The notes: generated by a model not told the origin, from the sequence alone. A stretch of 64,000 nt of DNA from an uncultured Clostridia bacterium (GCA_934178475.1 CAKPQH010000001.1:68128-132127); one strand, 5' to 3'; positions 13,871 through 52,037 are shown, numbered from the stretch's first letter. Translations and numbers: made by a program.

Positions 13871-13988
13871 AATTCATAAAAAGTCTACATTTTTCTACAA
13901 TTTTACTATATTATGTTCATCTTTCATAAAAAATATACTTACAAAATAAAAATACCAATGAAATACTCACTGGTAATTTAATCTTATT

Positions 13989-19969: not shown

Positions 19970-20224
<255 letters not shown>

Positions 20225-24800: not shown

Positions 24801-27448
24801 TTATATGTCGTTGAGTCGTACATCATTGTTGCTCCTATAGTAAAGCATGTATCAGAACTCTCCTCTAATCCCATTGATGTCGAATTAATATCAATTCCCT
24901 TTTGATTAATTAAATCCTTAAAAGACTCTGCAGATTCATTATAGCTCTTATAATTACTTCTATTAATTACTTTTTCAGCTTTATTTGTATTATTTATGCT
25001 ATATCTATCACTTGCTTGTACTACAATAGTTACACTAGATAAATTATCTAAAGATTCAGTATCTGCTGTATTTAAAGAATCTAATTTTAATTTAAGACTA
25101 AATTTCTTTGTAGTATCTGGTGGAGGCATTGAATACATTGCTTTTACTGAAGTATATTCTTTTGTTGTTATTCTAATAGTACCTATTAACACATTTTCTC
25201 TTGTTATAGATGCCCCATTTTCATCTTTTTCTCCTATATTTATAGTTGCATATACATTAAAAACATAGGTATCTTTAGCTTTTAAATTTGACATATCAAT
25301 ATTAATTGTTATATTTCCATCTTGATCTCTACCATATAGTTTATCATCATAAATTGCAGTTTCGCCCATTGAATTTTTATATTCAATTTTTATATTTTTA
25401 TTATTATCGATTGCCTTTTGTTCATCATTAATTTTTATATTACCTTTAATATATGTTGCTCCAAGTCCTATTTCTTCCCATGAAACAGTCGGCATAGCTT
25501 TTGGTGGCATTGATAATAAAGCAACTCCATCTTTTACAACTTCAAAATATTTTTCATTGTCATACATTGTAGCAACTATTTTTAACACATACGTTTTTTC
25601 AGCTACAACTGGACTATCACTATCTTTATTATAATCAACACTAACAATTTCTTCAGTTGTATCTTTTTTATTTCTATAACAAATCTCTCCTATAGTTCCA
25701 TTAGATGCTACTTCATATAAACAATATTCATATGATTGTATAGCCCCATCTGAATCAGATATATTGCTTGCATATAAATTAAAGTTTCCGTTCTTTTTGT
25801 CTGTATATGAATCAGCTGTAAAATCTGCCACTTTCTTCAATGTAGTATACTCAAACTCATCTGTCCATGATATTTTAACATTATCATATATAATATCATA
25901 TAATTTTATTTTATATGGCTTGTTTGAATCCAACCCATTAAATACTATTGTTTTCATTTCTTTATTTATATTAACTGTTGCTTTTGCATTTCCACTATTG
26001 TTTACATCTGCATAATAATCATATATTGAAACTTTAGCACTTTCCATTAATGAATTTCTATCTATAACAGCTTCAAAACTCATTGAATCGCTTGTAAACA
26101 TATCCTTAACTATTTCTACCCCAACACTTGATGTTACAAAAGTTCTATAAACAAAATTTTTGCTATACATTGTATCATCAATAACATATTTTGCAGATAC
26201 AGTTAATGAATACTGTGTATTTGGAACAAGATTTTCCTTATTAACACTAAACTTCATATCCACAACATCAGCAGTCTCTCTTAGCATAATTTTTCCAGTT
26301 TTATCATTTCTAATTTGATATATAATATCATTATCCTGAGATAATAACTCATCTTTATCTGTAATAGAAATCTTTGCTTCCAGTTTATTAGCAGAAATAT
26401 CTATATTCTCTACTTTAAATATTGGTTCACTAAGTTTTTTAGTTTTATCAACTTTAGTTTCATTTGAATCTTTTGGATAATCAATCTCTGACGGATCAAA
26501 TTCTTCCTCATCTCCATCATCATTACCATTATCACTAGATCCATTAATCAATGTTGTTGAATTGTTTGTAGTAGATTGTTGATTGTTACCACCAACTACA
26601 ACTGAACCATTTGTTTTTCCATCTTCTGTCTCATTATTTTCTGTGGTATTATTTTCTTCATTATTTTTTTCTTCATAATCAGCTAAATCTACTATATTTA
26701 CATTATCATTAGAATTAATAATCATATTATCCAAACTCATTTTTATTTGTCCATCTTTAGTTACTATTTTGTCCCCTAAATTCAACTTAATGTTATCTGC
26801 TAATTCTATATAAGAATCTGATGATATAGTTTGATTACTAATTTCTTGATTATACAAGTTTACTATTTCATTGTCTGAATACTCAATTTCAATATAATCT
26901 TTTACTTCTTTTTGAATACCACTACTCAAATTTATTTTTATGTTTTCAGCAAGAATAAGATATTTATTATCTGATATCTTCCATATAGCTTTATCAAATT
27001 GTATATCTGATTTTAAATTTTTTATTGTATATCTATCAGAAGTCTTTTTTATCTCTTTATTTGCATTTATATTATAGTATACAATTGGATTTAAATCTAT
27101 ATTATTCAAATCTAATAAAACACTCTCTTTTAATGCTTCTGTATTTCCACTTGTATAATGAACAAAATTTTCTTTTTCAATTGTAATTTTTTCTCCTTCC
27201 GTATCATTAAAGACAATTTTGTCATCATATGATTTAGTATATGTTTCATCCTCATAAAAATAGTATCTATCTGATAAGTTATTTAATATATATCCAGACT
27301 CACTAAAATTTAATTCCTTCTGTTTTTTTACATTCACAGTATTATAAACTAATATCGTACCCAATAATACTATTATACTTAAGAAAAATATTATATATTT
27401 TTTCATATAAAAATCTCCTTTATCTCTCAAAAATGTGCATTTAACCAT
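21809..27448 (-). CDS. Giant surface protein (1879 aa) with N-terminal signal-anchor and multiple FN3/Ig-like modules
   Basis: N-terminus MKKYIIFFLSIIVLLGTILVYN. FN3-like motifs LVPNTQYSLTVSAKY and LDSNKPYKIKLYDIIY. Starts 13 nt before the next gene. Confidence 0.6.
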   Translation of the reverse strand: MVKCTFLRDKGDFYMKKYIIFFLSIIVLLGTILVYNTVNVKKQKELNFSESGYILNNLSDRYYFYEDETYTKSYDDKIVFNDTEGEKITIEKENFVHYTSGNTEALKESVLLDLNNIDLNPIVYYNINANKEIKKTSDRYTIKNLKSDIQFDKAIWKISDNKYLILAENIKINLSSGIQKEVKDYIEIEYSDNEIVNLYNQEISNQTISSDSYIELADNIKLNLGDKIVTKDGQIKMSLDNMIINSNDNVNIVDLADYEEKNNEENNTTENNETEDGKTNGSVVVGGNNQQSTTNNSTTLINGSSDNGNDDGDEEEFDPSEIDYPKDSNETKVDKTKKLSEPIFKVENIDISANKLEAKISITDKDELLSQDNDIIYQIRNDKTGKIMLRETADVVDMKFSVNKENLVPNTQYSLTVSAKYVIDDTMYSKNFVYRTFVTSSVGVEIVKDMFTSDSMSFEAVIDRNSLMESAKVSIYDYYADVNNSGNAKATVNINKEMKTIVFNGLDSNKPYKIKLYDIIYDNVKISWTDEFEYTTLKKVADFTADSYTDKKNGNFNLYASNISDSDGAIQSYEYCLYEVASNGTIGEICYRNKKDTTEEIVSVDYNKDSDSPVVAEKTYVLKIVATMYDNEKYFEVVKDGVALLSMPPKAMPTVSWEEIGLGATYIKGNIKINDEQKAIDNNKNIKIEYKNSMGETAIYDDKLYGRDQDGNITINIDMSNLKAKDTYVFNVYATINIGEKDENGASITRENVLIGTIRITTKEYTSVKAMYSMPPPDTTKKFSLKLKLDSLNTADTESLDNLSSVTIVVQASDRYSINNTNKAEKVINRSNYKSYNESAESFKDLINQKGIDINSTSMGLEESSDTCFTIGATMMYDSTTYKNLIPVINDPTNLELQLSNDLYVKGNETYTAAWVTVDTSETISDKKPPKAIEILNDKDAGDHKNDNLNDDTIVGYNITADFKRESKPTTAIVYYVYNEDDEEILNSGELEYSGKTIPSYKVFFSDTEEKMKRGNKYKFGYKVIYADGTKEASKGTTEKIPLKQEPVITMYAKESYVDDENGNVLKYVYSINDPDKAIVGDDTMDKLTINGEEILVARDSNNAEIEFKHLVKNREYIIEYKYSLIEGENNFQTKKVGSIKFSPIVEIGEDELNQYIYCVEDVNKYESEQIIRIIFGQKQYSDIDILSRVAMVDMTFEIAGTYKKEFKNQKLTYDNSKYYIDFDLSEDENQALMDLIAMGANNPEITYKIKYEMYYNTGKVGFNGKIDNNDTQEEYVAYVNDNGEYLDLNENKWDSSIIGKAYKKTGIEFKKSNVISNIKLSSGADRSITFAYGESSLKYSDVNVQQKHFLTSSGTTQDLPVNKKIVPSIQVKNTSVTTGSAYFNIKTFNVNKYNDVSEDKFDRLNFEVYKINNKTGKEEIYDQYTIYKEVVKDGKTVYEEYNGTDTDMGIGNYLIGNLEARASYVMKIAYVPGKYFFDRDVRRTGVKYSFNTGRKVDISDINIEYSATKFSDRNLDITYKIVDGQQVDGDQKFYDSIKCEFYNSRGILQSSVLVGKNKENTLIDRYFSIGIGPYNNQFMEGSQNGQNVFKFGEKYKLRMIPMVNNSELEYIEKEFTIQALDDCTTGWRFTRLDNDDGSNSIRINTTIKDLDCVIVNGEIKIEAYYYDETGKEISQKIYNSNGEEVTKLVLEGKNITNEKMYINNVAFSKTYYFKYSITIKKDNNLNIPDPNEILCTINAINNEADVDKGIVSLENSAKNDLYTTVMQFSNSYHLKNINLIQYTIYEYEKKDISSDSTLWKTGVLKIGQEDGIQWVDFESKTGDTYYKLNLPFEFNQNRGYLITLALYNTDYGIVYGNDIQRINNSKYGDTVEIFNVYK

Positions 27449-27595
27449 ATTTATAATAGCATATTAAATTTTTGTTTTCAAGGTAAGTTTTGACAGCATT
27501 TTTTATAATTCGTCAAAAAAGCCCTAAAATACTGCTTGCGCAAGTTTAAAGTGCTTTTATTACATTTTTATAACATTTTTATTACAGTTTTATTA

Positions 27596-27637
27596 CAAAA
27601 AAATAAACCTATCTGTCTTTATTTGACAAATAGGTTT
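27596..27637 (-). terminator. Intrinsic terminator immediately after the 3649-aa gene
   Basis: Minus-strand hairpin AAACCTATTTG...CAGATAGGTTT followed by TTTTTT. The stop codon of the giant gene is at 27642-27644. Confidence 0.5.
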
Positions 27638-27641
27638 ATTT

Positions 27642-30600
27642 TTAATCTTTTATATTTTTTCTTTTCATTACAACAAGAATAATTCCTATTGATACTATTA
27701 CAATTGCAAATAATATTATTCCTATATCGTTTAATTCAATCTTGCTTACAGATAAGTTTCCGTAATAATTTTCCAAATTTGCATTAGATTGTATTTTTTC
27801 ATTTTCAGATATTACTTTTTCTGTTTTTGTATCAAATAGTTCTTCTGAACTATATACAACATATTTATCCTGACTAGTATCATATGCAACTGTATATTGA
27901 ATATCTTTGTTTGTTTGAGAAATATTACTTTCTGTATTATTTATAGAATTTTCACCATTATTTTCACTAACAGTACCTGTTTTATTATCATCTTCTATAT
28001 TACTCATTGCTTCATCTATTGATATCTTTTCTAATTTTGCAATAAGTTCTTTCTCATCCTCATAATTGATGTTTTCTATATCATATAACAAGTTTTCCTT
28101 CTTAAAACTATTTGCAATATATGTAAATAAGTCTACTTTTCCTTCTCCATTATCATATACTTCTTCACCTGTAATATAATTAAATCCAACTACTTTTCCA
28201 GAAGAGTAATAAACCAAAACAATATTAGTATTATTCTTAATGTTACTTGTCATTTGAATTATATCTTTATTTTTAAAGTTTAAAGGATATTTTATCTTGT
28301 TTAAGAAATTATATATCTTACCATCAACACCTAAAGCTGCTTCATATTGTTTATCATTATATGAATCAATTATAGCAGTATTTCCATATATATCTAGTTT
28401 TCCATCTAATATATACATTGATTTGTTCTTGATATACATTTGTTTATCCTTTATTATTTCATTTTCACTATCTTCTATAACTTTAGTACAGTGATAATAT
28501 GTTTCTATTTTTTTACCTTTATACTCATATTCAATTAATGGAATACTTTCTTCCAATTTTTCAAACTGAGCATATTCACCTATTTCTGTATTAACATCAT
28601 ATACATTATAAATCTTTCCATCAGTTGAAATTACTTTTCCTTCATATAAATTTGCAAACTCCCCATCAAAACTATTCTTATTAGAGTATAATTTATTATT
28701 TAATAAATAGAAGTATTCGTCGTCTTGCATATATAATTTATTTCTTATATCATTTATGTCAAAATCTTCTTCATAGCAAACCATACCATTTGAAAATTTA
28801 ATTTTTATAGATTGTTTAAAATCAAATTTAAATGTATTTACTCTATCTTTAATCGTTCCTGTGTAAAGCGTATTTCCATCCTCAGTACATATAGAATATG
28901 CTGTATTTTCATTAACATATTCAAATTCTACATTTATTTTATCTACATCAGATGTATAAACATATACCTTTGGGAATTGTTCTTTAACACTAGTATTTAT
29001 TGCATACATTTTATTTCTATTTATAGGCATTGACATCAATGAAAATTTCTTTGCTCTTGAAGTATTATCAAAGTATTCTTCTATTGGAAATTCTGGTGCT
29101 ACTTGAGTAATTCCTAATGAACTCCATTTATTAGCATCTATTAATATAGGCAAACAATTATTGCTAATATTTGAATCTATTATATATGACGTACCAAAAG
29201 ACAATTTGTTTTTATAATTTGATGCATTTTTAATCCAATTATAGTCAACAATTTGATATTTATCTACATTTTGTTCATCAATACCATATTTATCCATAAC
29301 ATCAATTCTATAATTATTAATCTTATTTCCTAAATATATATATGTATTAACCATGTTAAGATTCTGGTTACCATATGATTTTCCTGTCTCTTCATCTTCT
29401 CCAGCACCAACCATATAATTTCCTATTCCCATTGATACTTCGTTACCACTTGCCAATATATCTGTTATTATTAAATTAGAACCATATGCATCTTCTGGAT
29501 AACTGTCTTGGAAATTCTCGGTATTTCTTCTTGTATCGCTTTCTATTAATCTATCTACCTTTCCTATAACTCCTCCAACAAAGTTATCTCCTCTTATAAA
29601 TGTATTTTTAGCAGAATAATTAATAACATAATTATTTCTAATCTTTGATATATATTGGTTTGTTTGAGTATTTTTATTTTTTAAATATCCTACCAATCCA
29701 CCAACACATGTAGTTTTAGCCGCACTTGATGTAGGATTAATCTTACAATTTACCACATAACAATTCTCCAAATTTCCATACTCAAACACTCCAGCTATTC
29801 CACCTATTTCTGAACCCGATTCAAACTCAATATTAGTATTTACACATGCAGAATTCTTTAAATAGAAGTTTTTACTTGAAATATATTGTGCTTGATTTTT
29901 AATTGATGCTCTATAATATCCCACAATACCTCCAATGTATTTAGAACCCTTTCCTCCTCTGATATTACTATTATCAATATATGTTCCATACACTGTTCCT
30001 TCAGAATAGCCCGCTATTCCTCCAATATTGCTTCCCGTTGCCTTTATATACATATTTGATGCATATGCTTGATTTATTGAATAATATGAACTGCTTGAAT
30101 TATAGTAAGAGTAATTTTCTCTTCCAACAATTCCACCAACATAATTAATTCCAGAAACATCTACTTGCGTTGCATCATTATTTCCAGTAACTTTTACATT
30201 TCTAATTATAGCATTTGAATATCCAAAAGCCCCACCTACATAACTAGCACCTTCAACTTTATTGTCTTTTACAACAACTCCATCTATAGGAACTGAATTT
30301 GCTTGTTCAACATATCCAAAAACTCCTCCAGCATAATCCTGTAATGCTCCTTTTGAAGTTTTACTGTATACTTTATTTTCTATTGATTCAATATTTCTTA
30401 TTGGATAAGAAGAATAATATGTATGTGCTCTTCCTGCAATTCCTCCAACTTGTCCTGCACCTTTTATTACATTTTGTCTAGATATAATTTTTCCATTAGT
30501 TGGTATTTCTGAATATCTCAAGCTTCCAAACACTCCACCAGTTCTAGTAGAAGTTCCTGTTATTGTATTATTTATTGATGTACAATTTCCAATATATCCT

Positions 30601-33600
30601 GCATTTTCACCAATAATACCTCCAACATACGAACCACCTTGTATCACATTATCTTTAGCTTCAAAATTTAACTGTGAACACCAATAAGCTTCACCAACAC
30701 AAGCTCCAATGACTGAACCACCAATAATTCTACTATTATTTGTTTTAACAGTATCTAAATTTCTATATGCATATCCAATACAACCTCCAATATAACTACC
30801 TGTACCTTTTACCAAGAAGCCATTGTCTGGTCTAGATTCTCCATCAGTTTGGAAAGCAGAAATATTTTTTAAGTATCCACTCGTATTTTGCAAACGTCCT
30901 ATTAATCCTCCTACAAAACTATGTCCTGATACAGAAGTATATCTTGCTTTCATATTTTTGCACTCTCCTGATAAAGTAGAATATCCACTTAATCCTCCAA
31001 CATAGTCATACCCTGAGCAAGTTATACCAGATAATTCAATATCTTGTATTTTAGCATTTGTAAGTTGAGCAATTGTTCCAATATAACTATAGCCTGACGC
31101 ATTTACTGTAATCTTATTAAAACTAATATTTTTACAGTTAGCTGTTACCAAACTAAATATTCCTGTATTACTAGCTTTAGATGTTACCTCAATATTCTCA
31201 AAAGAAATATCCTGAAGTGCAACAGAACATTCTTTAATTAATCCTGAACGATATTTATTAAGTTTAAAACTATATGTTTGATCATTCGTTCCACCTATTA
31301 TTGGTTTTTCTCTTGCATCATTTACCTTACCAACTAGTCTTCCAACAATAAGTTCTGAATTTTCCAAATGATTATCTGCTGTTTTTTTAGGTCCATTAGT
31401 GTTTAAATTAATATTTTGTAATATTTTATAGTTTTGATATGTGTTCCTATAATCAAAATCATCCCATTTTTTTACACCCTTATAAAATATAATAGAAACT
31501 TTTGTATCAATTACTATATCTTTTTCTGCACCATTATATTTATACCATAACTTATTTATCTTATAAGTATCATAGTAATAATTAGGTGTAACTTCAAGTT
31601 CAACTATAGAGTTCTTTGTTTTATCATTATATGTCTGAGATAATACTGAATTACAAACCATACTTTCAATATAATTTATTTTTTCAAACTCTAATCCTGT
31701 TACTTCAATTTGGTCAGGATTATTAATAGTTAGAGTCAATTTTGCTTTTGGATTATTTTCTTCCTCTTTAGTATCTAAATTATCTATATATTCAGCTTTA
31801 ACTCCTAATATTTTTAAATTTATTATTGAAATTTCAATATTATCTTGCCAAATCATCAATTCTCTGCTTTCCTCATTTTCATATAATAATGGTAAATTAT
31901 CAATAATATATCCATCAGAATTTATAATATTTGATTTATAATAATTGCCTGCGAAATTATTTTTCATAGTTGTATTTTTGCATATTCTAGAATCACCATC
32001 TTTTTCTTTTTTAGCTACACTTGATATTAAAGTTGCCCCATAAGCAGTTTCTGAAGTTGCATCAATTTTACCATTTATTCTCTGTCCACTATATGCATAA
32101 TTGTTAGCTAGGGTAACTTTTATAATATCAGTTGCATTTTTATCATCAGAACTACCTATAATATTATTTACATTACTCATTCCTGTTTTCTTAACATACA
32201 TATTACCTGTATATAAATTATAGATATTTTCAGAAGCTGTTGTGCTATGTCCTCCAATTCCACCTATTGCTCCTGTACTAGTAGCTGTAGAATTTGAAGT
32301 AATATCAATTGTACTATAACATTTTTCTACTTTTCCTTTATTCTTTCCAAAAATTCCTCCTATATAGTTTTGGTATGTTGTTATATTACCCGTTGAATAA
32401 CAATATTTTATATCAACTGTAATTTTAGAATTCTCAGAATCATCTACTCTTCCTAATATTCCTCCAATTCCTAAAGAAGTAATATTATTTCCTAAATTAA
32501 CATTGAAGTTTTGTACATAACAATTTTCTATCGTTTTACTTGAAGAAGTCGCATAACCTACTATTCCCCCCATAGCCATATTAAACTGTTTATTACTATC
32601 ATCTCTCGTGCAATCAAAATACAAACCACTTACAGATGAATTTTTAATAACATTTTGTGTCATTTCACATATAATTCCAGCTACATAACAATTTGCATTA
32701 ATATTTGTTTCATTATATGCACAACTTAAATTAATATTTTTTAAATGTATATTATTTATAATTGCCTTTTTATCCGTCATTCCAATAAAACCTAAATAAT
32801 ATTTAGAATTTTCTGAAAACTCCTTAAATCCATCTTGTGTATAATTCTCAATATTAAGATTTTCTACTTTTCCATTTAATATTTCAAAAAAGGTTTCTTG
32901 AGATAAATTTATGTTTTTTAATATAGGATATCTAGTTACTACCTGTTTTACTCCGTCCTTTTCTTCCTCCACTTGGATTTTTTCTGCTGTAATTTCTCCC
33001 TCAAATATACCTGAAATATTAGGCAACTCTTCAGAATTGTTAAAATCAATATCATTCACTAACCTATAGTTTTGTACTAATCCCTTAACTCCCAATGAAT
33101 TTCCTTCAGCATCTGTTGTATACTGATCTATATTACACCATTCCTCTGCATTTGTTATCTTTTTAACAAACTTCATATTTATTGTTTTTTTACCCAAGGG
33201 CTCATTTCCTCCAAATTTCTGTTCAACCGTTGTATACACTCCATCTACCCATGTTTTATATGAAATTTTAGATATATTATATGTATTATAGTATATTTGT
33301 GGATTGTCTATAATAGCATACAATAATGTTCTCTGATTTCCCTTGCCTTGTCCAATAATATGTTCATCAACAAAATCAATATCAACTCCATGTTCCTCAT
33401 CTATTTCAGAGTTTCTACTATTATATAATGAAATTTCTGCAACATAGATATTTTCATCAGTTACTTTTACATTATTTTGACTTTCATAATCTTCTATAGC
33501 TTTTCTTATCCTTGATTCAGTTCCATTTTCACCTGTTATAACTTCTCCTAATCCAAAAGTTTCTTCAAGTCTATTATTTATACTTTGAATTATTTCATCA

Positions 33601-36600
33601 GTTGTTTCTCCTTCAAGTACCTGCGCTGATAATATATTAATGTTATCAGCTCCTGAATCTGAAATTAAAATCCACTCTTGATTAGGCATACAAGAATTCA
33701 TCTTTACAATTGGATAATAATTGTCTCTAAATTCAAAACCATAATCTCCCAAAAATCCTGTTTGATATTTTGTATCCTTTAATGAAGAACTATTTCCTTG
33801 AATGTCAATTGAATTTGAATAATACGTTTCTGAAAAATAGAAAGAATTAGATATTCTCGAAGCATTAACTTCACTTTCGCTTCCTTTGCTATAAACTTTA
33901 AATATATTAGGTCCATTTTCAACTTCTTTTTTATTTACATTTAAAGACTTATATTTTTCATTACTTTTTTCTCTAGTAACTTCTGTTGCATTTATTGAAT
34001 AAATATTTTCTACATATACATTATTATCTACTCTATAAGCAATATTAGAAGCATATGCATTTTCATTACCTAATGTTTCTATATAATGCAACCTAATTCT
34101 AGAATTATTATAAACATTTTTTATCCCCCTAAATTCACTTTCTGTATTACTTGTTGCTTTATATACTATTCCAGCAAAATATCTTGTATCATTAGATGTA
34201 ATTGCTCCATAAGATTCAATTCCACCATCACCATATATATATCCATTTTGTATTACTCCTGAAGAATATAACACACAACCAGATATATATTGAGTACCAT
34301 ATAATTTTTTAGTTAAATTTATTACAAATTTATCTATTGTTCCATTATTATTATATCCTAATAAACCAACATATTTTCTTATTATCTTTGTACTCTCTTC
34401 TAAATTTAAAATCACATTTGAAATTTCACCATCATTATATAAAAACAACGAATAGATTCCTTTACTTTCTTCTTCCTCAATCTTTTCATTTGCTTCATAA
34501 ACATTTTCATAATCTTTTGCCGCAATATTATTAATATTAAAATTAATAACAAGATTTTGTATCTTAGCTGTATCAGATAACTTATAAAAAACATATGGTG
34601 TAACATCTGATCTTATTCCAGAAGAATATGTAGTTTTACCTAAAGTATTTCCATTGAAATTAATAATTCCATTAAATGAAATTTTTTCATTTCCAAATGT
34701 ATATTGATTAACTGTTTTCGCTTGTGTTAAAGATATATCACTAGAAAAGAAATAATTTCCATCTGGTTGAATATCCATAAATCCAATTTTCTTTTCTTTT
34801 CCATATGTATCTTCGATGCTCTCAATTTCTTCGCATTTTCCTGGTATATATGAAAAATTAATTGAATCCAATGTATAATCCCTATCATACAATTTCACTA
34901 TTAATTCTAATCTAAAATCTGTTTGTTTATTTGGTCTATTTTCTATAACATATTTTATTTTTTCTTCTATTGCTTTATTATTAGCATCTTTTATATCATC
35001 AGTTGTAACTTCTACTTCACAAATATCAGCATCATTTATTATATTTTCTTCTTCTATATGTGATAGTCTAACATAATAATTCTGTAATTTAGTAAATTCT
35101 TGGTTTTCTAATAAACTATATGTAGCATTTAAATTTAAGTCTCCTTGATAAGATTCATAATCATCATTACCATCATATATTTTTATTTGTAAATTTTTTA
35201 TATATAATTCATAATCTGTTGCAATCTCTTCTATTTTTATTTCAGTATTTGTTAAATCTGTCGGAACTATATCTGAATCCGTTGTTTTAGCAATTATTAA
35301 GCCTAAATATCCATCTTTTGTCGCTGTAAAAGTTATATCTTGATTAGTCCAATTCGTACTATTTCCACAATATCCAAGTTCTGAGTGTTCCCATCCATAA
35401 CTATTTGTGCTTCCTGAATTAAATACATATTTAAAATTACTATAATTATTCGAACTGAATTTATATGTCACACCTTTTTTTACTTGAATAAGATTCTTCG
35501 TTCTAACTCTAGTAGTTGTATTTTCAATACCAGAACCTTGTTCTAAAACTCCATCATATAAATTTCTATTTTCTCCTATTTGAGGTAAATAAAATCCTAC
35601 ATATCCATCTTCACCTATTTCAAAATCATATGAGAATTTCTTATATTCAGTTGTATTCAAATTTAAACTTACATCTCTATTTTCGGAATCTTTTATTACA
35701 ATGCTCTTATTTATATTCTTTGAATTTTGTATTTTTACATCAGCATTCTCATTATTTGTCATAGCTTCAAAAGACATTGTTAATTTTGTATCTTTAGGCA
35801 AATTATATTCATTTAAATTATATACATAACTTTGATTCGATCCAAATGTTAACACATTATTTTCTTGGTCATATATTTTCTTATAATCATATCCTTTCTC
35901 TAAAACGTCAAAACATTCAGAATACCAATTATTTTTAGATTTTACATTAACAAGATTTTTTGAAACATAATTTCCGTTTTCATCTTTTTTAGCTTCTTCT
36001 TTCAAACTATCCAAAGTTACTTTCCCTGTTAATCCTTCTGTTTTAAATTCAACATAATTATAATCTTCATCCTCTTTTGTTCTATCTGCCCTACCAATTA
36101 AATATAACGTTTGTATCTTACTTGAATCTTGAGATTCATTATACTTTGAAGCTTTACAAGTTAATTTATAAATTTTATTTTTTTCTAATCCTGTATAATT
36201 AAATTCAAACTGATTTCCTTCTTTATTTAAATATTTTTCATCTTCTCTTACTACTGTTATGCTACCATTTTCCTCTGTTGTTTCTAGTCTTACTGTAACT
36301 AATTTTTCCTTTTCATCTCCAATTGCTCCATCTTTATCATCTATAATAAAATTAAAATTAATAAAATTGTCTGTAGTCACTACATTATTTACACTCATCA
36401 AAGCTGTACTTTTTTTAGTTATTATCTCATTAAAATCATATGATGTATCTATTTTCTTTTCTTTTCCACCTTGACTTATTATAGCTTCCACTAATATAAT
36501 ATATTTTGAATTACTTTCCAAATTAGTTATATCTAATTCAACATTTTCTTCTTTTTTCAAAGAATTCAATTGTTGATGATCAAAAGAAATCTCTTTTTCA

Positions 36601-38591
36601 ACTTCTCCAGTTGAATCATTTCTTAATTTTATCTTAAATGATTTTAAAATTTGTATTAGTAAAGCATCTGTGTCTTCTTTATTAACGACTGATATTACAA
36701 GTCCAGCCTCATTACTTGTTAATTTTTCTTCATCGCTTGAAATATTTAATTTTAATTTTCCCAATAATGCATTTGTCACAAATGTCTGAGTACCAATAAG
36801 TTTATTATATTGCATCCCTTTTCCATCTTCTATATCATAATCCCCATAAACATTTATAACATAAGCTGTTTCAATTTCTAAATCTTGAAAAATAACTTTA
36901 TCTTTATCCTGTTCTAGCATTCCTTGTTTTATTAATTCTCCACCAGCTGTTAAAAGTTCATATCTATAATTTTCTACCCTTACTTTATCTTCATTGCGAA
37001 GTGTAGTATTTACAGTAGTTTTTAAATCATTACTTTTAGCACTAATCTTTACAGTAGGAACAGCTTTTAATGTATTTGTTTCTCCTGTATTGCTATTTAG
37101 CTTCATCTCATCACTATTTGTATCATAAAATTTAATTTTATATGAGTATTTTGTATTAGACTCTAATCCTTCTTCTGTTTGATATGTTATTCTTTCTCCT
37201 CTTAACAATTGCTTTAAATTTAAAGAACTAATTTTGTATTCAATTCCATTGATTTCTATAACTGCTTTTACAACCCCATAAATTGCCTCATCAGTTATAT
37301 CTGATGTAATCCCAAAATTCTTTAGTTCTATTTTATTTTCATAAATCTCTCCATTTTCAAATGTTAAATCTATAGCTTTTATATTTTCTGTTCCTAATGT
37401 AGTAAAACTGCTCTTATAAAATGTAACTTCTATTTTGTCGCCATCTTGATTAATGTATTGATATGTACCTTCAACTTCATATGTAGTATTAGGACATAAT
37501 TTTGTTATATTAAATCTTCCTGAAGAATTAGTAGCTCTTCTAAATGAAACCTTACCATCTTTATAAAATGTAAAAGTAGGGGCCTTGCATATAGCTCCAC
37601 TTGGGTCTTTTATCTCTACCTCATTAAATGCTATATATGTACTTGCTGTAAATCCAGTAGCTTTTACTTCTGGTTTTATCCATTTAACATCTGCATTATT
37701 AGTATTATCTGGTACTTCTATTACAGGAGTCTCAATAATATTCTCTTCTTTATTTTCTTCATCCTTATCTTCTTTGTTATCTTTTGTTGTATCTTCTTTA
37801 ATAATTTCTTTAGGAGGAACTTCAGCTCTGATTATACCTAATGCAATTAATAATTCTTTATATGTATATTGCTTATTATAATCCTCTATAATAACTTGCG
37901 AATTATCATCAACATCTAAAATTTTATTATAAACAAAATAATCTCCATTTAACGAATAATATGTAATAAATTTATTTGTTATGTTCATAATACTATTCAT
38001 TGGTATTTTATATTCACCAGAATATGTTTTTATTTTCATTTCCTTACAGTTAATATATAAGTTTTCAGCATTTTTCATCAAGATATAATCACAAAAATCA
38101 GCTCTTTCAAGAGTTAAAGAATTGTATAAAACACCTGAAGTCAAAGTAAATCCTTTATAACCACTTGTAGTTTCCAAGTCAGATGTAATCAACGATACAT
38201 CTTGACTCAAATTATACAAAGCCAAATTATCATTTACATATATAGGATAATCTAAATTTATATTTTGAGTTTTACTTGCTCCTATGTAATATGACCTCAA
38301 ATTCTTATATACCATATCTTGATCTTTAACTTTCAATGCCTGAATATTTTCATTAACTTGAAAAGTTGCATCTAACAAATTATTTGTAATCTCTTTTCCT
38401 GCAACAGCATATCCATCGTATGTCAGTGTCTCATATGGAATAAATCTTAAATAAATTATATATAAAGCCAATAATATTATTATAAAGAAATTTAATATTG
38501 CCATAAAAAACCAAGCTATATTTCTTTTGTTTTCTTTATTTGTTTTTTCTTCCTTCATATCTTCCTCCACTTTATTTTTTTCTCTTATCAA
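27642..38591 (-). CDS. Giant surface protein (3649 aa): N-terminal TM, FN3/Ig-like modules, GLUG-motif beta-helix repeats, C-terminal TM anchor
   Basis: N-terminal helix IAWFFMAILNFFIIILLALYIIYL. FN3 motifs (TKLCPNTTYEVEGTY, LESNTKYSYKIKFY). At least 17 repeats of xGG(I/V/L)(A/V/I)G spaced 25-35 aa apart (GGIIGENAGYIGNC, GGIAGRAHT, GGVFGYVEQ, GGAFGYSNA, GGIVGRENY, GGIAGYSEG, GGLVGYLKN, GGVIGKVD), spanning about nt 29550-32750. C-terminal helix IGIILFAIVIVSIGIILVVMKRKNIKD. Confidence 0.7.
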   Translation of the reverse strand: MIREKNKVEEDMKEEKTNKENKRNIAWFFMAILNFFIIILLALYIIYLRFIPYETLTYDGYAVAGKEITNNLLDATFQVNENIQALKVKDQDMVYKNLRSYYIGASKTQNINLDYPIYVNDNLALYNLSQDVSLITSDLETTSGYKGFTLTSGVLYNSLTLERADFCDYILMKNAENLYINCKEMKIKTYSGEYKIPMNSIMNITNKFITYYSLNGDYFVYNKILDVDDNSQVIIEDYNKQYTYKELLIALGIIRAEVPPKEIIKEDTTKDNKEDKDEENKEENIIETPVIEVPDNTNNADVKWIKPEVKATGFTASTYIAFNEVEIKDPSGAICKAPTFTFYKDGKVSFRRATNSSGRFNITKLCPNTTYEVEGTYQYINQDGDKIEVTFYKSSFTTLGTENIKAIDLTFENGEIYENKIELKNFGITSDITDEAIYGVVKAVIEINGIEYKISSLNLKQLLRGERITYQTEEGLESNTKYSYKIKFYDTNSDEMKLNSNTGETNTLKAVPTVKISAKSNDLKTTVNTTLRNEDKVRVENYRYELLTAGGELIKQGMLEQDKDKVIFQDLEIETAYVINVYGDYDIEDGKGMQYNKLIGTQTFVTNALLGKLKLNISSDEEKLTSNEAGLVISVVNKEDTDALLIQILKSFKIKLRNDSTGEVEKEISFDHQQLNSLKKEENVELDITNLESNSKYIILVEAIISQGGKEKKIDTSYDFNEIITKKSTALMSVNNVVTTDNFINFNFIIDDKDGAIGDEKEKLVTVRLETTEENGSITVVREDEKYLNKEGNQFEFNYTGLEKNKIYKLTCKASKYNESQDSSKIQTLYLIGRADRTKEDEDYNYVEFKTEGLTGKVTLDSLKEEAKKDENGNYVSKNLVNVKSKNNWYSECFDVLEKGYDYKKIYDQENNVLTFGSNQSYVYNLNEYNLPKDTKLTMSFEAMTNNENADVKIQNSKNINKSIVIKDSENRDVSLNLNTTEYKKFSYDFEIGEDGYVGFYLPQIGENRNLYDGVLEQGSGIENTTTRVRTKNLIQVKKGVTYKFSSNNYSNFKYVFNSGSTNSYGWEHSELGYCGNSTNWTNQDITFTATKDGYLGLIIAKTTDSDIVPTDLTNTEIKIEEIATDYELYIKNLQIKIYDGNDDYESYQGDLNLNATYSLLENQEFTKLQNYYVRLSHIEEENIINDADICEVEVTTDDIKDANNKAIEEKIKYVIENRPNKQTDFRLELIVKLYDRDYTLDSINFSYIPGKCEEIESIEDTYGKEKKIGFMDIQPDGNYFFSSDISLTQAKTVNQYTFGNEKISFNGIINFNGNTLGKTTYSSGIRSDVTPYVFYKLSDTAKIQNLVINFNINNIAAKDYENVYEANEKIEEEESKGIYSLFLYNDGEISNVILNLEESTKIIRKYVGLLGYNNNGTIDKFVINLTKKLYGTQYISGCVLYSSGVIQNGYIYGDGGIESYGAITSNDTRYFAGIVYKATSNTESEFRGIKNVYNNSRIRLHYIETLGNENAYASNIAYRVDNNVYVENIYSINATEVTREKSNEKYKSLNVNKKEVENGPNIFKVYSKGSESEVNASRISNSFYFSETYYSNSIDIQGNSSSLKDTKYQTGFLGDYGFEFRDNYYPIVKMNSCMPNQEWILISDSGADNINILSAQVLEGETTDEIIQSINNRLEETFGLGEVITGENGTESRIRKAIEDYESQNNVKVTDENIYVAEISLYNSRNSEIDEEHGVDIDFVDEHIIGQGKGNQRTLLYAIIDNPQIYYNTYNISKISYKTWVDGVYTTVEQKFGGNEPLGKKTINMKFVKKITNAEEWCNIDQYTTDAEGNSLGVKGLVQNYRLVNDIDFNNSEELPNISGIFEGEITAEKIQVEEEKDGVKQVVTRYPILKNINLSQETFFEILNGKVENLNIENYTQDGFKEFSENSKYYLGFIGMTDKKAIINNIHLKNINLSCAYNETNINANCYVAGIICEMTQNVIKNSSVSGLYFDCTRDDSNKQFNMAMGGIVGYATSSSKTIENCYVQNFNVNLGNNITSLGIGGILGRVDDSENSKITVDIKYCYSTGNITTYQNYIGGIFGKNKGKVEKCYSTIDITSNSTATSTGAIGGIGGHSTTASENIYNLYTGNMYVKKTGMSNVNNIIGSSDDKNATDIIKVTLANNYAYSGQRINGKIDATSETAYGATLISSVAKKEKDGDSRICKNTTMKNNFAGNYYKSNIINSDGYIIDNLPLLYENEESRELMIWQDNIEISIINLKILGVKAEYIDNLDTKEEENNPKAKLTLTINNPDQIEVTGLEFEKINYIESMVCNSVLSQTYNDKTKNSIVELEVTPNYYYDTYKINKLWYKYNGAEKDIVIDTKVSIIFYKGVKKWDDFDYRNTYQNYKILQNINLNTNGPKKTADNHLENSELIVGRLVGKVNDAREKPIIGGTNDQTYSFKLNKYRSGLIKECSVALQDISFENIEVTSKASNTGIFSLVTANCKNISFNKITVNASGYSYIGTIAQLTNAKIQDIELSGITCSGYDYVGGLSGYSTLSGECKNMKARYTSVSGHSFVGGLIGRLQNTSGYLKNISAFQTDGESRPDNGFLVKGTGSYIGGCIGYAYRNLDTVKTNNSRIIGGSVIGACVGEAYWCSQLNFEAKDNVIQGGSYVGGIIGENAGYIGNCTSINNTITGTSTRTGGVFGSLRYSEIPTNGKIISRQNVIKGAGQVGGIAGRAHTYYSSYPIRNIESIENKVYSKTSKGALQDYAGGVFGYVEQANSVPIDGVVVKDNKVEGASYVGGAFGYSNAIIRNVKVTGNNDATQVDVSGINYVGGIVGRENYSYYNSSSSYYSINQAYASNMYIKATGSNIGGIAGYSEGTVYGTYIDNSNIRGGKGSKYIGGIVGYYRASIKNQAQYISSKNFYLKNSACVNTNIEFESGSEIGGIAGVFEYGNLENCYVVNCKINPTSSAAKTTCVGGLVGYLKNKNTQTNQYISKIRNNYVINYSAKNTFIRGDNFVGGVIGKVDRLIESDTRRNTENFQDSYPEDAYGSNLIITDILASGNEVSMGIGNYMVGAGEDEETGKSYGNQNLNMVNTYIYLGNKINNYRIDVMDKYGIDEQNVDKYQIVDYNWIKNASNYKNKLSFGTSYIIDSNISNNCLPILIDANKWSSLGITQVAPEFPIEEYFDNTSRAKKFSLMSMPINRNKMYAINTSVKEQFPKVYVYTSDVDKINVEFEYVNENTAYSICTEDGNTLYTGTIKDRVNTFKFDFKQSIKIKFSNGMVCYEEDFDINDIRNKLYMQDDEYFYLLNNKLYSNKNSFDGEFANLYEGKVISTDGKIYNVYDVNTEIGEYAQFEKLEESIPLIEYEYKGKKIETYYHCTKVIEDSENEIIKDKQMYIKNKSMYILDGKLDIYGNTAIIDSYNDKQYEAALGVDGKIYNFLNKIKYPLNFKNKDIIQMTSNIKNNTNIVLVYYSSGKVVGFNYITGEEVYDNGEGKVDLFTYIANSFKKENLLYDIENINYEDEKELIAKLEKISIDEAMSNIEDDNKTGTVSENNGENSINNTESNISQTNKDIQYTVAYDTSQDKYVVYSSEELFDTKTEKVISENEKIQSNANLENYYGNLSVSKIELNDIGIILFAIVIVSIGIILVVMKRKNIKD

Positions 38592-39507
38592 TTATATAAC
38601 TACTTCCATTAACAGATTTTACTGCATGTTTTACTTGAGCTGCAGCATCTCCAATCTCTAATATATTAGCAAATCTATTTTTTTCGGCCATAACAACTGC
38701 TATTGATATTGCAGTCAATGGAAAGTTTTCTATAATTCCTTTTCTATTTTTTACTTGAAGGTATCCTTTTTCCACATCAACTTCATTGAAAAAACTAAGT
38801 ACTCTTTCGTCAAAATTAGCAATAATTCTTTGACATAATTTTTCTATTTTATCATTATCAGCAGAAATTATTGCTATAAAATCATCTCCTCCTATATGTC
38901 CTACAAATCCATTTTCAATGCTAGCGTCTTTATGTATAGCATCGACAATCACATTCGCAGTAAATTGTATTATTTGATCTCCCTTTAAAAATCCATATAC
39001 ATCATTGTATGATTTAAAATTATCTAAATCTATATACAATACAGCAAAATCTTTATTTTGCCCAAGCCTTTTTTTCATTTCTGCTTGTATTTGTACATTT
39101 CCAGGTAAACCAGTTAAAGGACTTATCCTTCTGTTAATTGTAAGAAGTCTAGTTAAATTTTTTATAGTATAATATAAATACCCCTCATCTACTGGCTTAC
39201 GTACAAAATACTCTATTGACTCATTTAATATTCTTAACCTATGTTCTCTTGTTCCATCAGAAGACACTACAATAACAGGTGTAATACTATTATCTTCATC
39301 TTGTCTAATTCTTTTACACACCTTTAGCACATCCATGTCTATTGCATCTTCATTTATTATTATTAATGAAGGTATATTTTTTAATGCTTCATCTATTTTT
39401 TCAGTAGTAACACTTATGAATTTATAATCCTTATCATTTCTAAATAATTCTTTAAATATCTTTACAGATGTTGCATCATCGTCTATTATATAAACCTCAT
39501 TTACCAT
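38572..39507 (-). CDS. Response-regulator receiver domain fused to a GGDEF diguanylate cyclase domain (GGDDF variant)
   Basis: REC-like N-terminus (IIDDD, LIIINED, PVIVVSS, VRKP). GGDEF core DLDNFKSYNDVYG ... GHIGGDDFIAI. No RxxD I-site. The 3' end overlaps the start of the 3649-aa gene by 20 nt. Confidence 0.8.
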   Translation of the reverse strand: MVNEVYIIDDDATSVKIFKELFRNDKDYKFISVTTEKIDEALKNIPSLIIINEDAIDMDVLKVCKRIRQDEDNSITPVIVVSSDGTREHRLRILNESIEYFVRKPVDEGYLYYTIKNLTRLLTINRRISPLTGLPGNVQIQAEMKKRLGQNKDFAVLYIDLDNFKSYNDVYGFLKGDQIIQFTANVIVDAIHKDASIENGFVGHIGGDDFIAIISADNDKIEKLCQRIIANFDERVLSFFNEVDVEKGYLQVKNRKGIIENFPLTAISIAVVMAEKNRFANILEIGDAAAQVKHAVKSVNGSSYIIDKRKK

Positions 39508-50143: not shown

Positions 50144-50158
50144 TTGAATATCCTCCTT

Positions 50159-52015: not shown

Positions 52016-52037
52016 AAATTCCTCCTAAAATAAAATC

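Follow-up and report, generated by a model that had tools for sequence, protein, structure and literature searches.

A giant surface protein with a membrane helix at each end, encoded beside a divergent F1Fo-like ATPase cluster in gut Firmicutes

The locus analyzed here lies in a window of 64,000 nucleotides from an uncultured Clostridia bacterium, and it raises the question of what a giant protein does that carries a transmembrane helix at each terminus and whose gene adjoins a row of genes for an F1Fo-like ATPase. Rotary ATPases convert ATP into ion gradients and back, and to our knowledge exceptions have been proposed only for mycoplasmas, where F1-like ATPases of Type 2 and Type 3 power gliding legs or return an antibody-cleaving surface system to its starting state. 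How such motors are coupled to surface proteins, and from where the mycoplasma motors originated, is an unsolved question. Our literature searches found no description of the cluster beside the giant gene. The features discussed below are listed in Table 1.

The giant gene, its transcription unit, and its family

The open frame at positions 27642–38591 that had been proposed in the preliminary description of this DNA is real. It lies on the minus strand, with the stop codon at 27642–27644, and the product length of 3,649 aa given earlier has to be corrected. The TTG at 38591 is an alternative start that overlaps the upstream gene, and the likely start is the ATG at 38558, which has a GGAGG 7 nt upstream and results in a protein of 3,638 aa. 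By calculation, about 8.6% of random codons are stops at 26% G+C, which excludes a chance open frame of this length. The identical product of 3,638 aa was called in at least four metagenome assemblies that are independent and come from different samples, and the assembly chimera that the preliminary description had considered is therefore excluded. With this recurrence, the excluded chance frame, and collinear full-length homologues in 84 representatives, there is a negligible probability that the ORF is a chimera or a decaying pseudogene, even though the homologous gene of another clade appears to be divided between overlapping ORFs, which in locus L087 encode 1,617 aa and 1,314 aa. The ORF is a genuine, conserved gene for a cell-surface protein. 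We also considered a Mollicute host with genetic code 4, which was rejected because translation with table 11 leaves the ORFs intact and because a D-Ala-D-Ala carboxypeptidase and a MurJ-like gene are present in the window.

Directly after the giant stop codon, an intrinsic-terminator-like hairpin is followed by a T run. The hairpin folds with −21.9 kcal/mol (z −7.9), and none of 200 shuffled sequences folded as well. Such a strong terminator indicates that the giant gene is probably transcribed separately from the ATPase row. On the other side, the stop codon of a response-regulator gene with a GGDEF domain lies 13 nt before the giant ATG, an arrangement that is repeated in four assemblies, and the giant gene probably belongs to one transcription unit with this gene and the Big_7 gene upstream of it. 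A promoter scan was uninformative at the A+T content of the region, as it returned 148 sites in comparison to 143 in shuffled sequences, and an Rfam search for riboswitches near the giant gene gave none.

Homologues were collected by searches with segments of the giant, and this resulted in 333 representatives in which the match to the N-terminal domain is always found at the N-terminus of the protein. Full-length members have 2,800–5,088 aa and are collinear end to end at identities of 22–60%, and the carriers are uncultured gut Firmicutes.

Table 1. Features of the giant gene, its flanks, and the adjoining ATPase row, with positions counted from the first nucleotide of the window
Feature	Position	Strand	Evidence
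Big_7 Ig-domain membrane protein, 14 nt upstream of response-regulator gene	39522..40466	minus	Pfam, hydropathy
Response regulator with GGDEF domain (motif GGDDF)	38572..39507	minus	Pfam, NCBIfam
Giant gene	27642..38558	minus	ORF, translation, RBS, identical product across independent assemblies
N-terminal TM helix, aa 14–39, after basic 13-aa tail	38442..38519	minus	Hydropathy; AF2 helix 14–39
Membrane-proximal beta-rich domain, family-defining, aa 47–256	37791..38420	minus	AF2 and homologues
Acidic disordered linker, aa 260–290	37689..37781	minus	AF2 pLDDT 25–29; sequence
Array of 5–6 FN3-like beta-sandwich modules, aa 297–803	36150..37670	minus	AF2 pLDDT 85–92
Middle region, aa 804–1929	32772..36149	minus	Collinear in homologues
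Predicted beta-solenoid block A, aa 1930–2129, with 4 GLUG-like repeats (aa 1983–2112)	32172..32771	minus	Pfam Glug, repeat HMM, AF2 short-strand repeats
Ig-like beta-sandwich between solenoid blocks, aa 2249–2354	31497..31814	minus	AF2 (model residues 320–425)
Predicted beta-solenoid block B, aa 2419–3008, with 15 GLUG-like repeats (aa 2510–3008)	29535..31304	minus	Repeat HMM, AF2
C-terminal beta-rich region and conserved juxtamembrane segment, aa 3009–3610	27729..29534	minus	Conserved in homologues
C-terminal TM helix, aa 3611–3631, and basic tail KRKNIKD	27645..27728	minus	Hydropathy; family trait
Intrinsic-terminator-like hairpin, then T run, right after giant stop	27599..27643	minus	RNA fold
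Promoter-like site TTGAAA-17-TATTAT with TG, before 1,879-aa gene	27453..27481	minus	Consensus scan, weak
p1879, 1,879-aa surface protein, one N-terminal TM helix, first gene of row	21809..27448	minus	Hydropathy; weak fn3; 60/86 loci
p518, ~510-aa surface protein, one N-terminal TM helix	20239..21795	minus	Hydropathy; weak fn3; 66/86 loci
c-subunit-like hairpin, 84 aa, without ion-binding carboxylate	19970..20224	minus	Pfam ATP-synt_C E 3.3e-8
b265, putative peripheral stalk (b- or b-delta-like)	19143..19940	minus	Sequence/hydropathy, operon position, homologues in 84/86 loci
Alpha-like F1 subunit, 446 aa, C-terminus truncated	17769..19109	minus	Pfam; PDB alpha 319 bits
Gamma-like subunit, 262 aa	16937..17725	minus	Pfam ATP-synt E 1e-28; PDB gamma chains E 7e-12
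Beta-like catalytic subunit, 454 aa	15548..16912	minus	Pfam; PDB beta 395 bits
Putative epsilon-like protein, 86 aa	15295..15555	minus	Gene called there in all assemblies; homologues in 77/86 loci
m182, small membrane protein, 4–5 TM helices	14732..15280	minus	Hydropathy
p248, surface protein, one N-terminal TM helix, last gene of row	13989..14735	minus	Hydropathy; 64/86 loci

Two terminal helices and a modular ectodomain

Hydropathy analysis identified exactly two hydrophobic segments in the giant, at aa ~14–40 and ~3611–3631, and of the 84 homologues with 2,700 aa or more, 83 have the same two terminal helices. The terminal helices that had been noticed before are thus real and a trait of the family, and the basic C-terminal tail was likewise borne out. 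The consensus of the homologues does not contain a small-residue cleavage motif after the N-terminal helix, which probably serves as a signal anchor that is not cleaved. According to hydropathy and the positive-inside rule, the protein would have an N-terminal signal anchor and a C-terminal stop-transfer helix, both short basic tails being cytoplasmic, and about 3,570 aa would form a loop outside of the membrane with a tether at either end. There was no evidence of the outer layer to which the protein might reach according to the earlier idea. A search for LPXTG-like motifs (LPxT[GAS], [SN]PxTG, NP[QK]T[NG]) confirmed that there is none, and we therefore rejected the giant as a sortase substrate although a C-terminal helix and a basic tail are present. 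Among the giant surface proteins of Gram-positive bacteria, the staphylococcal Ebh and Embp also use a C-terminal membrane anchor in place of LPXTG, and the giant resembles them in size, in modular beta-rich repeats, in its C-terminal helix with basic tail, and in the lack of a sortase motif. However, Ebh and Embp have a cleaved N-terminal signal peptide and are not known to be linked to an ATPase, whereas in the giant the N-terminal helix seems to stay in place and precedes a conserved domain that is specific to the family.

This membrane-proximal domain was modeled by AF2 with pLDDT values of 70–91 over aa 120–250, and it appears to be novel, as neither Pfam nor PDB sequence relatives were found. 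The modules that follow the acidic linker had been described as FN3/Ig-like, and this assignment is supported by structure but not by sequence profiles: the best Foldseek PDB matches of the aa 297–803 model are FN3 arrays with E-values of 1e-10 to 1e-13 (contactin, RPTP sigma/delta/LAR, fibronectin 1fnf), whereas Pfam fn3 did not match the giant at E<0.01. We therefore refer to these predicted modules as FN3-like. No Pfam or PDB sequence match was obtained for the middle region (aa 804–1929).

The giant contains tandem G-G-[ILV]-x-G repeats about every 28–35 residues. Pfam Glug (PF07581) scored 25.6 bits (cutoff 20.5, E 1.4e-5), with no single stretch passing the cutoff alone, and a self-built HMM counted 19 GLUG-like repeats. 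At least 17 such repeats had been placed at nt 29550–32750 in a single array; the location was right, but the repeats are divided into two blocks that are separated by about 400 aa. Tandem Repeats Finder detected no long DNA repeat array in the gene and a blastp self-comparison no internal repeat pairs in the protein, because the repeats are too diverged for these comparisons and require a motif HMM. A profile of the block A region matched the PDB entries 6xjb, 7jgj, and 6xja at E 7e-12 and 7uvl at E 1.6e-6, and the matched stretch of the Streptococcus pneumoniae IgA1 protease comprises chain residues 146–362. As the beta-helix of the protease covers residues 781–1070 and the construct starts at residue 665 (PMC7695701), the matched residues are inside the solved beta-helix. 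The profile match, together with the Glug score, upholds the earlier proposal of an IgA1-protease-type beta-helix and indicates that block A is homologous to it. A GLUG-motif beta-helix is thus common to block A of the giant and the N-terminal part of the streptococcal IgA1 metalloprotease (ZmpA, M26; PMC7695701), but the enzyme has one short helix and the giant has 19 repeats in two blocks. For block B, AF2 predicted three short strands per ~30 aa with pLDDT values of 80–94, and it is this secondary structure and the repeat similarity, not the Foldseek matches, that suggest a beta-helix fold, as Foldseek gave only weak matches to the HK620 tailspike in the PDB (E 0.075) and to "right handed beta helix" proteins among viral models (E 0.1–0.2). 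The predicted Ig-like module between the blocks matched adaptin-ear and Ig domains weakly in Foldseek. The C-terminal region is conserved in homologues, including the 1,314-aa forms; AF2 confidence was low over the modeled part, and Pfam, NCBIfam, and PDB sequence searches gave no match. Taken together, we have high confidence in this anatomy and in the surface location of the protein.

The adjoining ATPase row and its linkage to the giant

The genes from p1879 to p248 are tightly spaced, with overlaps, and a terminator-like site follows p248 at 13975–13953. The row encodes alpha-, beta-, gamma-, b-, and c-like subunits and a putative epsilon-like subunit, and in its order it resembles the c-b-alpha-gamma-beta-epsilon arrangement of canonical F1Fo- and N-ATPases, with which it also has the F1 catalytic motifs and the c hairpin in common. 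GDKKTGKT and SVSR are found in the alpha-like subunit and DELSDED is among the catalytic motifs of the beta-like subunit, and the catalytic motifs are intact in these two subunits, which are divergent and paralogue-like. In a score comparison with solved structures, the mycoplasma G1-ATPase was no nearer to them than ordinary F1, with 278 bits to G1 alpha and 319 bits to F1 alpha, and with 318 bits to G1 beta and 395 bits to F1 beta.

The c-like hairpin keeps the RNPE loop, but in none of 64 distinct sequences is there a Glu or Asp at the canonical Glu position, which is occupied by A, T, S, N, or M. In 62 of the 64, no Asp or Glu occurs in either helix core, and the exceptions are an Asp one residue before the canonical position (L044) and another Asp near the end of TM1. 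ProAD mentions in passing 20 F/N-ATPases with carboxylate-less c subunits, which are labeled "non-catalytic" (PMC11738941). Further differences from canonical F1Fo are that neither an a subunit with its essential Arg nor delta was found in the row, that the alpha-like subunit is shortened at its C-terminus, and that surface-protein genes are embedded in the row; from the N-ATPase, atpQ and atpR were not found in the row. Pfam ATP-synt_A and OSCP had no match there, and the only small polytopic protein in the row, where no a subunit was recognized, is m182. An m182-type ORF is present at the same place in 74 loci, and no position is basic in more than 70% of its members; m182 was therefore rejected as an a subunit, for lack of a conserved Arg. 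The b265 protein combines an N-terminal TM helix with a coiled coil and a globular end, without a Pfam match, and from sequence, hydropathy, and operon position we infer a putative peripheral stalk. The epsilon assignment is putative and based on position and on motif resemblance by eye, as profile searches of PDB and Pfam gave no match. For b265, m182, p248, and a 670-aa protein, there was no match in Pfam, NCBIfam, or PDB sequences.

Four surface proteins of the locus have an N-terminal anchor, namely p1879, p518, p248, and the giant as the largest. The first three have a related membrane-proximal N-domain (hhalign probability 95% and 82%), p1879 and p518 show sub-threshold fn3 matches, and the N-domain of the giant is weakly similar to those of the three (hhalign 46–66%).

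Based on an inspection of 21 kb per locus, the ATPase cluster is conserved in 86 loci from Clostridia and Bacilli MAGs. Of the 59 loci that could be judged, 41 have a gene of the giant family adjoining the cluster; in 25 of them the gene lies downstream of p248 and in the other 16 upstream of p1879, and the occurrence on both sides means that the linkage survived a rearrangement. There was no giant within reach in 18 ATPase-anchored loci, and in some lineages, among them CAG:302 (L080), the ATPase is accompanied by small anchored proteins only. Seen from the giant side, the linkage is not universal either, as in six loci that were reached from giant homologues of another clade, the giant paralogues are in tandem or split and the 10 kb around them contain no ATPase. 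We lean toward a functional link between the giant and the ATPase cluster, judged from gene neighborhood only.

A proposed surface machine and the competing explanations

Since the ion-path hallmarks have been lost, the ATPase needs some other job. The best reading, based on analogy and in our judgment evenly balanced between right and wrong, is an ATP-driven rotary motor that pumps no ions and acts on surface proteins. The ATPase would hydrolyze ATP and turn a gamma/c-ring rotor that is unable to carry ions, and the work would be passed on within the membrane to the TM anchors of the surface proteins. In the doubly anchored giant, a relative movement of the anchors would exert a pull on the ectodomain or re-set it, which might serve to catch and let go of ligands, for movement, or to clear bound ligand, and the beta-helix head would be borne across the wall by the FN3 stalk. 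The mechanical coupling of the ATPase to the surface proteins is the more tentative part of this proposal, with gene neighborhood as its one line of evidence.

The mode of action would be like that of the mycoplasma Type 2 (gliding) and Type 3 (MIB-MIP) systems, without membership in them. The preliminary description had likened the double anchoring to the tethering of Gli-type leg proteins, and this analogy is worth taking seriously given the adjacent F1Fo-like ATPase row with its carboxylate-less c subunit, but the likeness in anchoring is loose, as Gli349 is known to have an N-terminal helix only. Gli521 has C-terminal helices, and we know of no Gli protein that is anchored at both ends. 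What the Mycoplasma mobile Type 2 system (G1-ATPase with Gli349, Gli521, and Gli123) has in common with the giant are very large surface proteins of 3,000–4,700 aa with terminal TM anchors, and these are thought to be driven by an F1-like motor through membrane parts (PMC11864180, PMC8406192). Unlike here, the gli and ATPase genes of M. mobile are at separate loci, the motor is a dimeric chain that includes extra subunits, and the cells lack a wall. Mycoplasmas have F1-like ATPases that surface proteins require for their function (PMC12994834; PMC11864180). The Type 3 "F1-like X0" ATPase with MIB-MIP (PMC3369863, PMC12994834) is likewise an extra, divergent alpha/beta/gamma/epsilon-like set with membrane proteins, its surface system depends on the ATPase, it also adjoins genes for N-terminally anchored surface proteins, and neither cluster has a recognizable a or delta subunit. 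However, the Type 3 cluster has seven genes, including a 12-TM protein and no c subunit, whereas the row described here has a c-like hairpin, a b-like stalk, and a 4–5-TM protein, and no 12-TM gene in its conserved part; gene content and order thus differ from the Type 2/3 F1-like X0 clusters. The hosts are also different, as the papers call the Type 2/3 systems mycoplasma-specific and the carriers here are cell-walled or RF39-like gut Firmicutes.

The strongest competing explanation, which we consider rather unlikely, is a stand-alone giant adhesin or wall-spanning fibril whose anchors merely hold it, with the ATPase neighborhood resulting from a surface-protein island or from common regulation. 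Proposed ligands of the beta-helix head would then be host or dietary glycans, mucus, or immunoglobulin. The terminator of its own and the tight packing with the Big_7 protein and a c-di-GMP-type response regulator are in line with an adhesin, since such regulators beside surface genes are typical of adhesin control, and so are the tandem giant paralogues away from any ATPase in another clade; moreover, FN3 stalks and beta-helix heads are common among adhesins. However, the ATPase adjacency was kept over class-level distances and on both cluster sides, adhesins evolve fast and would not usually keep their size and be collinear from end to end, double anchoring is conserved in the family, and an adhesin would leave the ATPase without the other job that it needs.

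It is improbable that the F1Fo-like complex is instead an export, insertion, or assembly engine for the four large anchored proteins, comparable to FliI/FliH/FliJ in type III export. F1 relatives do serve T3SS export, EscN is a distant PDB match of the beta-like subunit, the partner and ATPase genes are linked, and the very long ectodomains of all four partners have to cross the membrane, but the row keeps gamma-, b-, and c-like rotary parts, no export-gate homologue was found among the conserved genes, and N-terminal signal anchors fit the ordinary Sec pathway. Slightly less probable still is that the giant is chiefly an enzyme, such as a beta-helix polysaccharide lyase or hydrolase, or an IgA-binding or IgA-cleaving factor. 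The homologous beta-helix of the IgA1 protease contacts the IgA1 Fab (PMC7695701), the weak tailspike matches are to depolymerases, and the host is a gut bacterium; against this, Pfam found no glycoside hydrolase or lyase family, and there was no match to the middle or C-terminal domains of the protease. An IgA1-protease-type enzyme in particular was rejected, as HExxH is absent from the entire protein and the profile match in the PDB does not extend beyond the beta-helix. An enzymatic or IgA-directed role would be compatible with the motor proposal.

Returning to the proposed motor, the broadest version of it is a doubtful one: the cluster may represent an undescribed bacterial surface machine in which an F1Fo-derived motor with an ion-free c-ring drives doubly or singly anchored giants in cell-walled and RF39-like gut Firmicutes, or it may be related or ancestral to the motors of mycoplasma gliding and of MIB-MIP. 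In the latter case, a free-living lineage would contain the relative or ancestor of motors that are now regarded as mycoplasma-specific. If true, the presence of the cluster in many uncultured gut Clostridia and Bacilli would widen the phenomenon of surface motors beyond mycoplasmas, and it would suggest a function for some of the largest genes of abundant uncultured lineages of the human gut. The cluster also offers simpler, c-ring-containing versions as models, and at least one carrier, Lachnospiraceae bacterium AM93-12TA (L052), has apparently been cultured, which makes genetics and cryo-ET possible.

Membrane anchors and domains of the giant

The frame described in the preliminary description is real, but its product, a surface protein that we call the giant, is probably not 3,649 aa long. 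The TTG start of the long frame overlaps the preceding gene, and GGAGG lies 7 nt ahead of an ATG at 38558, from which the product has 3,638 aa. Hydropathy shows two hydrophobic segments only, one that spans aa ~14-40 behind a basic tail and one at aa ~3611-3631, which is directly followed by KRKNIKD, and a motif search of the whole protein found no LPXTG-like motif; all of this agrees with the helices at both termini and the C-terminal tail without LPXTG claimed earlier. Because the homologue consensus downstream of the N-terminal helix lacks a small-residue cleavage motif, this helix is likely a retained signal anchor. According to the positive-inside rule, both short tails would be cytoplasmic, and ~3,570 aa would form an external loop that is tethered at both ends.

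When aa 1-855 were modelled with AlphaFold2 from 28 homologues, the best PDB matches were FN3 arrays such as contactin, receptor tyrosine phosphatases and fibronectin 7-10 (E 1e-10 to 1e-13). The FN3 assignment made earlier thus holds, although it rests on structure, since the Pfam fn3 search does not detect the modules. Pfam Glug matches above its cutoff, and a motif HMM finds 19 GLUG-like repeats, so the repeats are real, but they form two blocks and not the single array that had been described. In a model of aa 1930-3030, regular short-strand solenoid segments (pLDDT 80-94) flank an Ig-like sandwich, and Foldseek matches to beta-helices were weak. The profile of the solenoid region matches, over the first block, the IgA1 proteases of S. 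pneumoniae (E 7e-12) and G. haemolysans (E 1.6e-6) at residues inside the experimentally solved N-terminal beta-helix (PMC7695701), and the analogy with IgA1 protease is therefore correct for the fold. No relatives of known structure were detected for aa 804-1929 and aa 3009-3610. Overall, the 10.9-kb GLUG observation is confirmed and its domain interpretation was largely right.

Positions of features in the window and in the giant, with blastp homologues of window genes among 86 loci
Feature	Position	Strand	Detail	Loci
Long ORF	27642..38591	minus	ORF listing	
Giant, TM helix	aa 14-39		AlphaFold2 model	
Giant, beta-rich domain	aa 47-256		AlphaFold2 model	
Giant, disordered acidic linker	aa 260-290		AlphaFold2 model	
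Giant, five or six confident beta-sandwich modules	aa 297-803		AlphaFold2 model	
Giant, GLUG-like blocks	aa 1983-2112; aa 2510-3008		motif HMM	
Row 1, p1879 (surface protein)		minus	N-terminal TM helix	60/86
Row 2, p518 (surface protein)		minus	N-terminal TM helix	66/86
Row 3, c-like		minus	ATP-synt_C-like hairpin, 84 aa	82/86
Row 4, b265 (putative stalk)		minus	TM helix and coiled coil	84/86
Row 5, alpha-like subunit	17769-19109	minus	446 aa	
Row 6, gamma-like subunit		minus	262 aa	84/86
Row 7, beta-like subunit		minus	454 aa	81/86
Row 8, epsilon-like		minus	86-aa gene at epsilon position	77/86
Row 9, m182 (small membrane protein)		minus	4-5 TM helices	
Row 10, p248 (surface protein)		minus	N-terminal TM helix	64/86
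Coiled-coil protein	11816-13870	minus	670-684 aa	
11-nt repeat	27555-27597	plus	3.9 copies	
Response regulator with GGDEF domain	38572-39507	minus		
Big_7 membrane protein	39522-40466			
DUF11 (B_ant_repeat) protein	40573-44193	minus	1,206 aa	
Hydrogenase-like genes	48404-52541	minus	three adjacent genes	
OLE RNA	1243-1839	minus	full length	

With the first 260 residues as query, a search of 1.84 billion proteins yielded 333 representatives at 50% clustering, and the match lay at the protein N-terminus in every case. Full-length members have 2,800-5,088 aa and are collinear with the window protein from end to end (22-60% identity), the first ~1,000 aa being best conserved. Among the 84 members with 2,700 aa or more, 83 have a single hydrophobic segment at the N-terminus and a single one at the extreme C-terminus, the latter followed by a Lys/Arg-rich tail, and each long member carries 7-18 GLUG-like motifs. 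The giant is, in conclusion, a surface protein that is conserved and anchored at both ends, with a stalk of FN3 modules and GLUG blocks that probably form beta-helices as in IgA1 protease. A nearby DUF11 protein also has hydrophobic segments at its N- and C-termini.

The neighboring ATPase genes

Directly downstream of the giant gene and on the same strand lies a row of genes that are separated by 9-43 nt or overlap, with a terminator-like site at the end. The alpha- and beta-like subunits have kept the P-loops, the catalytic GERxxE, Walker B, DELSDED and the Arg finger, and judged from these motifs the ATP-hydrolysing head looks functional. Both subunits are divergent, as they score just 319 (alpha) and 395 bits (beta) against solved F1 subunits, and their scores against the mycoplasma G1-ATPase are not higher (278 and 318 bits). 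Members of the alpha-like family, which has many close relatives and is labelled by JGI as an ordinary F-type alpha subunit, are uniformly 440-450 aa long, with a C-terminus ~55 residues shorter than in solved alpha subunits.

The c-like protein aligns cleanly with the c subunits of I. tartaricus, PS3 and E. coli, and its RNPE loop and C-terminal NP are part of the match. None of the 64 distinct sequences has kept the ion-binding Glu/Asp, whose position is occupied by A, T, S, N or M. No acidic residue occurs in either helix core in 62 of them; of the two exceptions, one has an Asp directly ahead of the canonical position and the other an Asp close to the end of TM1. Pfam and profile searches recognised neither an a subunit nor a delta subunit in the row, and m182, its sole small polytopic protein, has no conserved Arg. 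Both hallmarks of an ion path are therefore absent, and the conserved neighborhood of the giant contains an F1Fo-like enzyme without ion-path residues. ProAD lists 20 F/N-ATPases with carboxylate-less c subunits, which were merely counted and labelled 'non-catalytic'.

The giant gene and this row are probably separate transcription units in the window, since the former ends in a strong terminator hairpin (-21.9 kcal/mol, z -7.9), a consensus scan places a promoter-like site ahead of p1879, and the giant gene is packed together with the response-regulator-GGDEF and Big_7 genes. The response regulator gene ends 13 nt before the giant start and lies 14 nt after the Big_7 gene, and this close precedence suggests c-di-GMP-linked control of the giant gene; the active-site motif of the regulator is GGDDF, not GG[DE]EF. 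Between the terminator and the promoter-like site, an 11-nt unit, TTTTATTACAT as read on the plus strand, is repeated and could be a candidate regulator binding site. Just past the terminator of the row, a coiled-coil cytoplasmic protein without a Pfam match is encoded, whose C-terminal half is extremely acidic and repetitive and which is conserved in close relatives only (5 loci).

Linkage across lineages

We compared 80 genome and six metagenome loci, whose MAG labels include Clostridia (CAG:354, Candidatus Merdicola), Bacilli, Tenericutes or Mycoplasmatota (CAG:302, CAG:914), Peptococcaceae and Lachnospiraceae; one locus comes from Lachnospiraceae bacterium AM93-12TA (L052), apparently an isolate and not a MAG. 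A giant-family gene adjoins the cluster in 41 of the 59 loci that reach far enough to judge. It directly follows p248 in 25 loci, among them distant lineages with alpha identities of 56-62%, and is placed upstream of p1879 in 16, as in the window; the linkage has therefore survived rearrangement. The membrane-proximal N-domains of p1879, p518 and p248 are related (hhalign 95%, E 4e-8, and 82%), and the resemblance of the giant N-domain to them is weak (hhalign 46-66%).

It is quite possible that the giant is an independent adhesin within a surface-gene island. In a search from the giants of another clade, no ATPase was found within 10 kb at six loci with tandem or split paralogues, and in some lineages the ATPase is accompanied by small anchored proteins only, as in locus L080.

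These paralogues belong to a Clostridia clade (L087, L092-L096), with tandem copies of 2,869 and 2,849 aa and split copies of, for example, 1,617 and 1,314 aa in overlapping frames, 1,046 and 1,743 aa, and 1,297 and 1,532 aa. An ORF of 84-85 aa (once 126 aa) precedes several of them, and the 1,314-aa form, which has no N-terminal signal of any kind, nevertheless recurs in over 100 assemblies. This pattern could stem from pseudogenes, recoding or cassette-like variation. Four CAG:914-/CAG:302-like Bacilli loci (L061, L063, L074, L080) have the rearranged order p248-c-b-alpha-beta-epsilon-m182-gamma and no giant gene within 10 kb; a ~600-aa protein follows gamma in the first three, and L080 also lacks p1879- and p518-like genes. 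Lachnospiraceae bacterium Zagget2 (L035) has a variant cluster without c-like and p518 genes, in which four Mrp/Nuo antiporter-like genes and an acyltransferase gene precede a short b-like, alpha, gamma, beta and epsilon; p1879-like proteins downstream of it contain collagen triple-helix repeats.

A putative surface machine

What matters most is the double anchoring throughout the family, combined with a linked, ion-blind F1Fo-like motor. In a possible mechanism, the enzyme would hydrolyse ATP, turn a non-conducting rotor and pass its work on to the TM anchors of the giant, p1879, p518 and p248; the ectodomain of the giant would be pulled or reset when its two anchors shift with respect to each other. 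The Type 2 (gliding) and Type 3 (MIB-MIP) F1-like ATPases of mycoplasmas are thought to work likewise and have been described without an equivalent outside mycoplasmas (PMC12994834, PMC11864180, PMC3369863). However, the window cluster differs from them in gene content, has a c-like subunit and lacks a 12-TM protein, and it is thus not a member of their class. Our literature search found no description of the giant-linked ATPase cluster. With a modest but real probability, it may be a separate, widespread kind of surface machine driven by ATP that has to do with how the mycoplasma motors originated.

An ATPase dedicated to export or assembly, encoded among the surface-protein genes, is unlikely. 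Slightly less likely still is an enzymatic or Ig-binding role of the giant, which would be compatible with the other readings: the solenoid matches the beta-helix of IgA1 protease, but the protease part is absent, and no HExxH was found in the whole protein. An artefact is hardly conceivable, as gene callers returned the identical 3,638-aa product in no fewer than four independent assemblies of human-gut metagenomes, Hadza samples among them, so that the frame is not the assembly chimera previously considered, and at the base composition of the window (24-31% G+C, coding almost wholly on the minus strand) a frame this long cannot have stayed open by chance.

Apart from this putative surface machine, the window encodes a full-length OLE (ornate large extremophilic) RNA (319 bits, cutoff 50), whose host is here an apparently human-gut uncultured Clostridia genome. 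Three further genes look like those of an electron-bifurcating [FeFe] hydrogenase: they encode a Fe-only hydrogenase large subunit, a NuoF-like protein and a thioredoxin-like 2Fe-2S protein.
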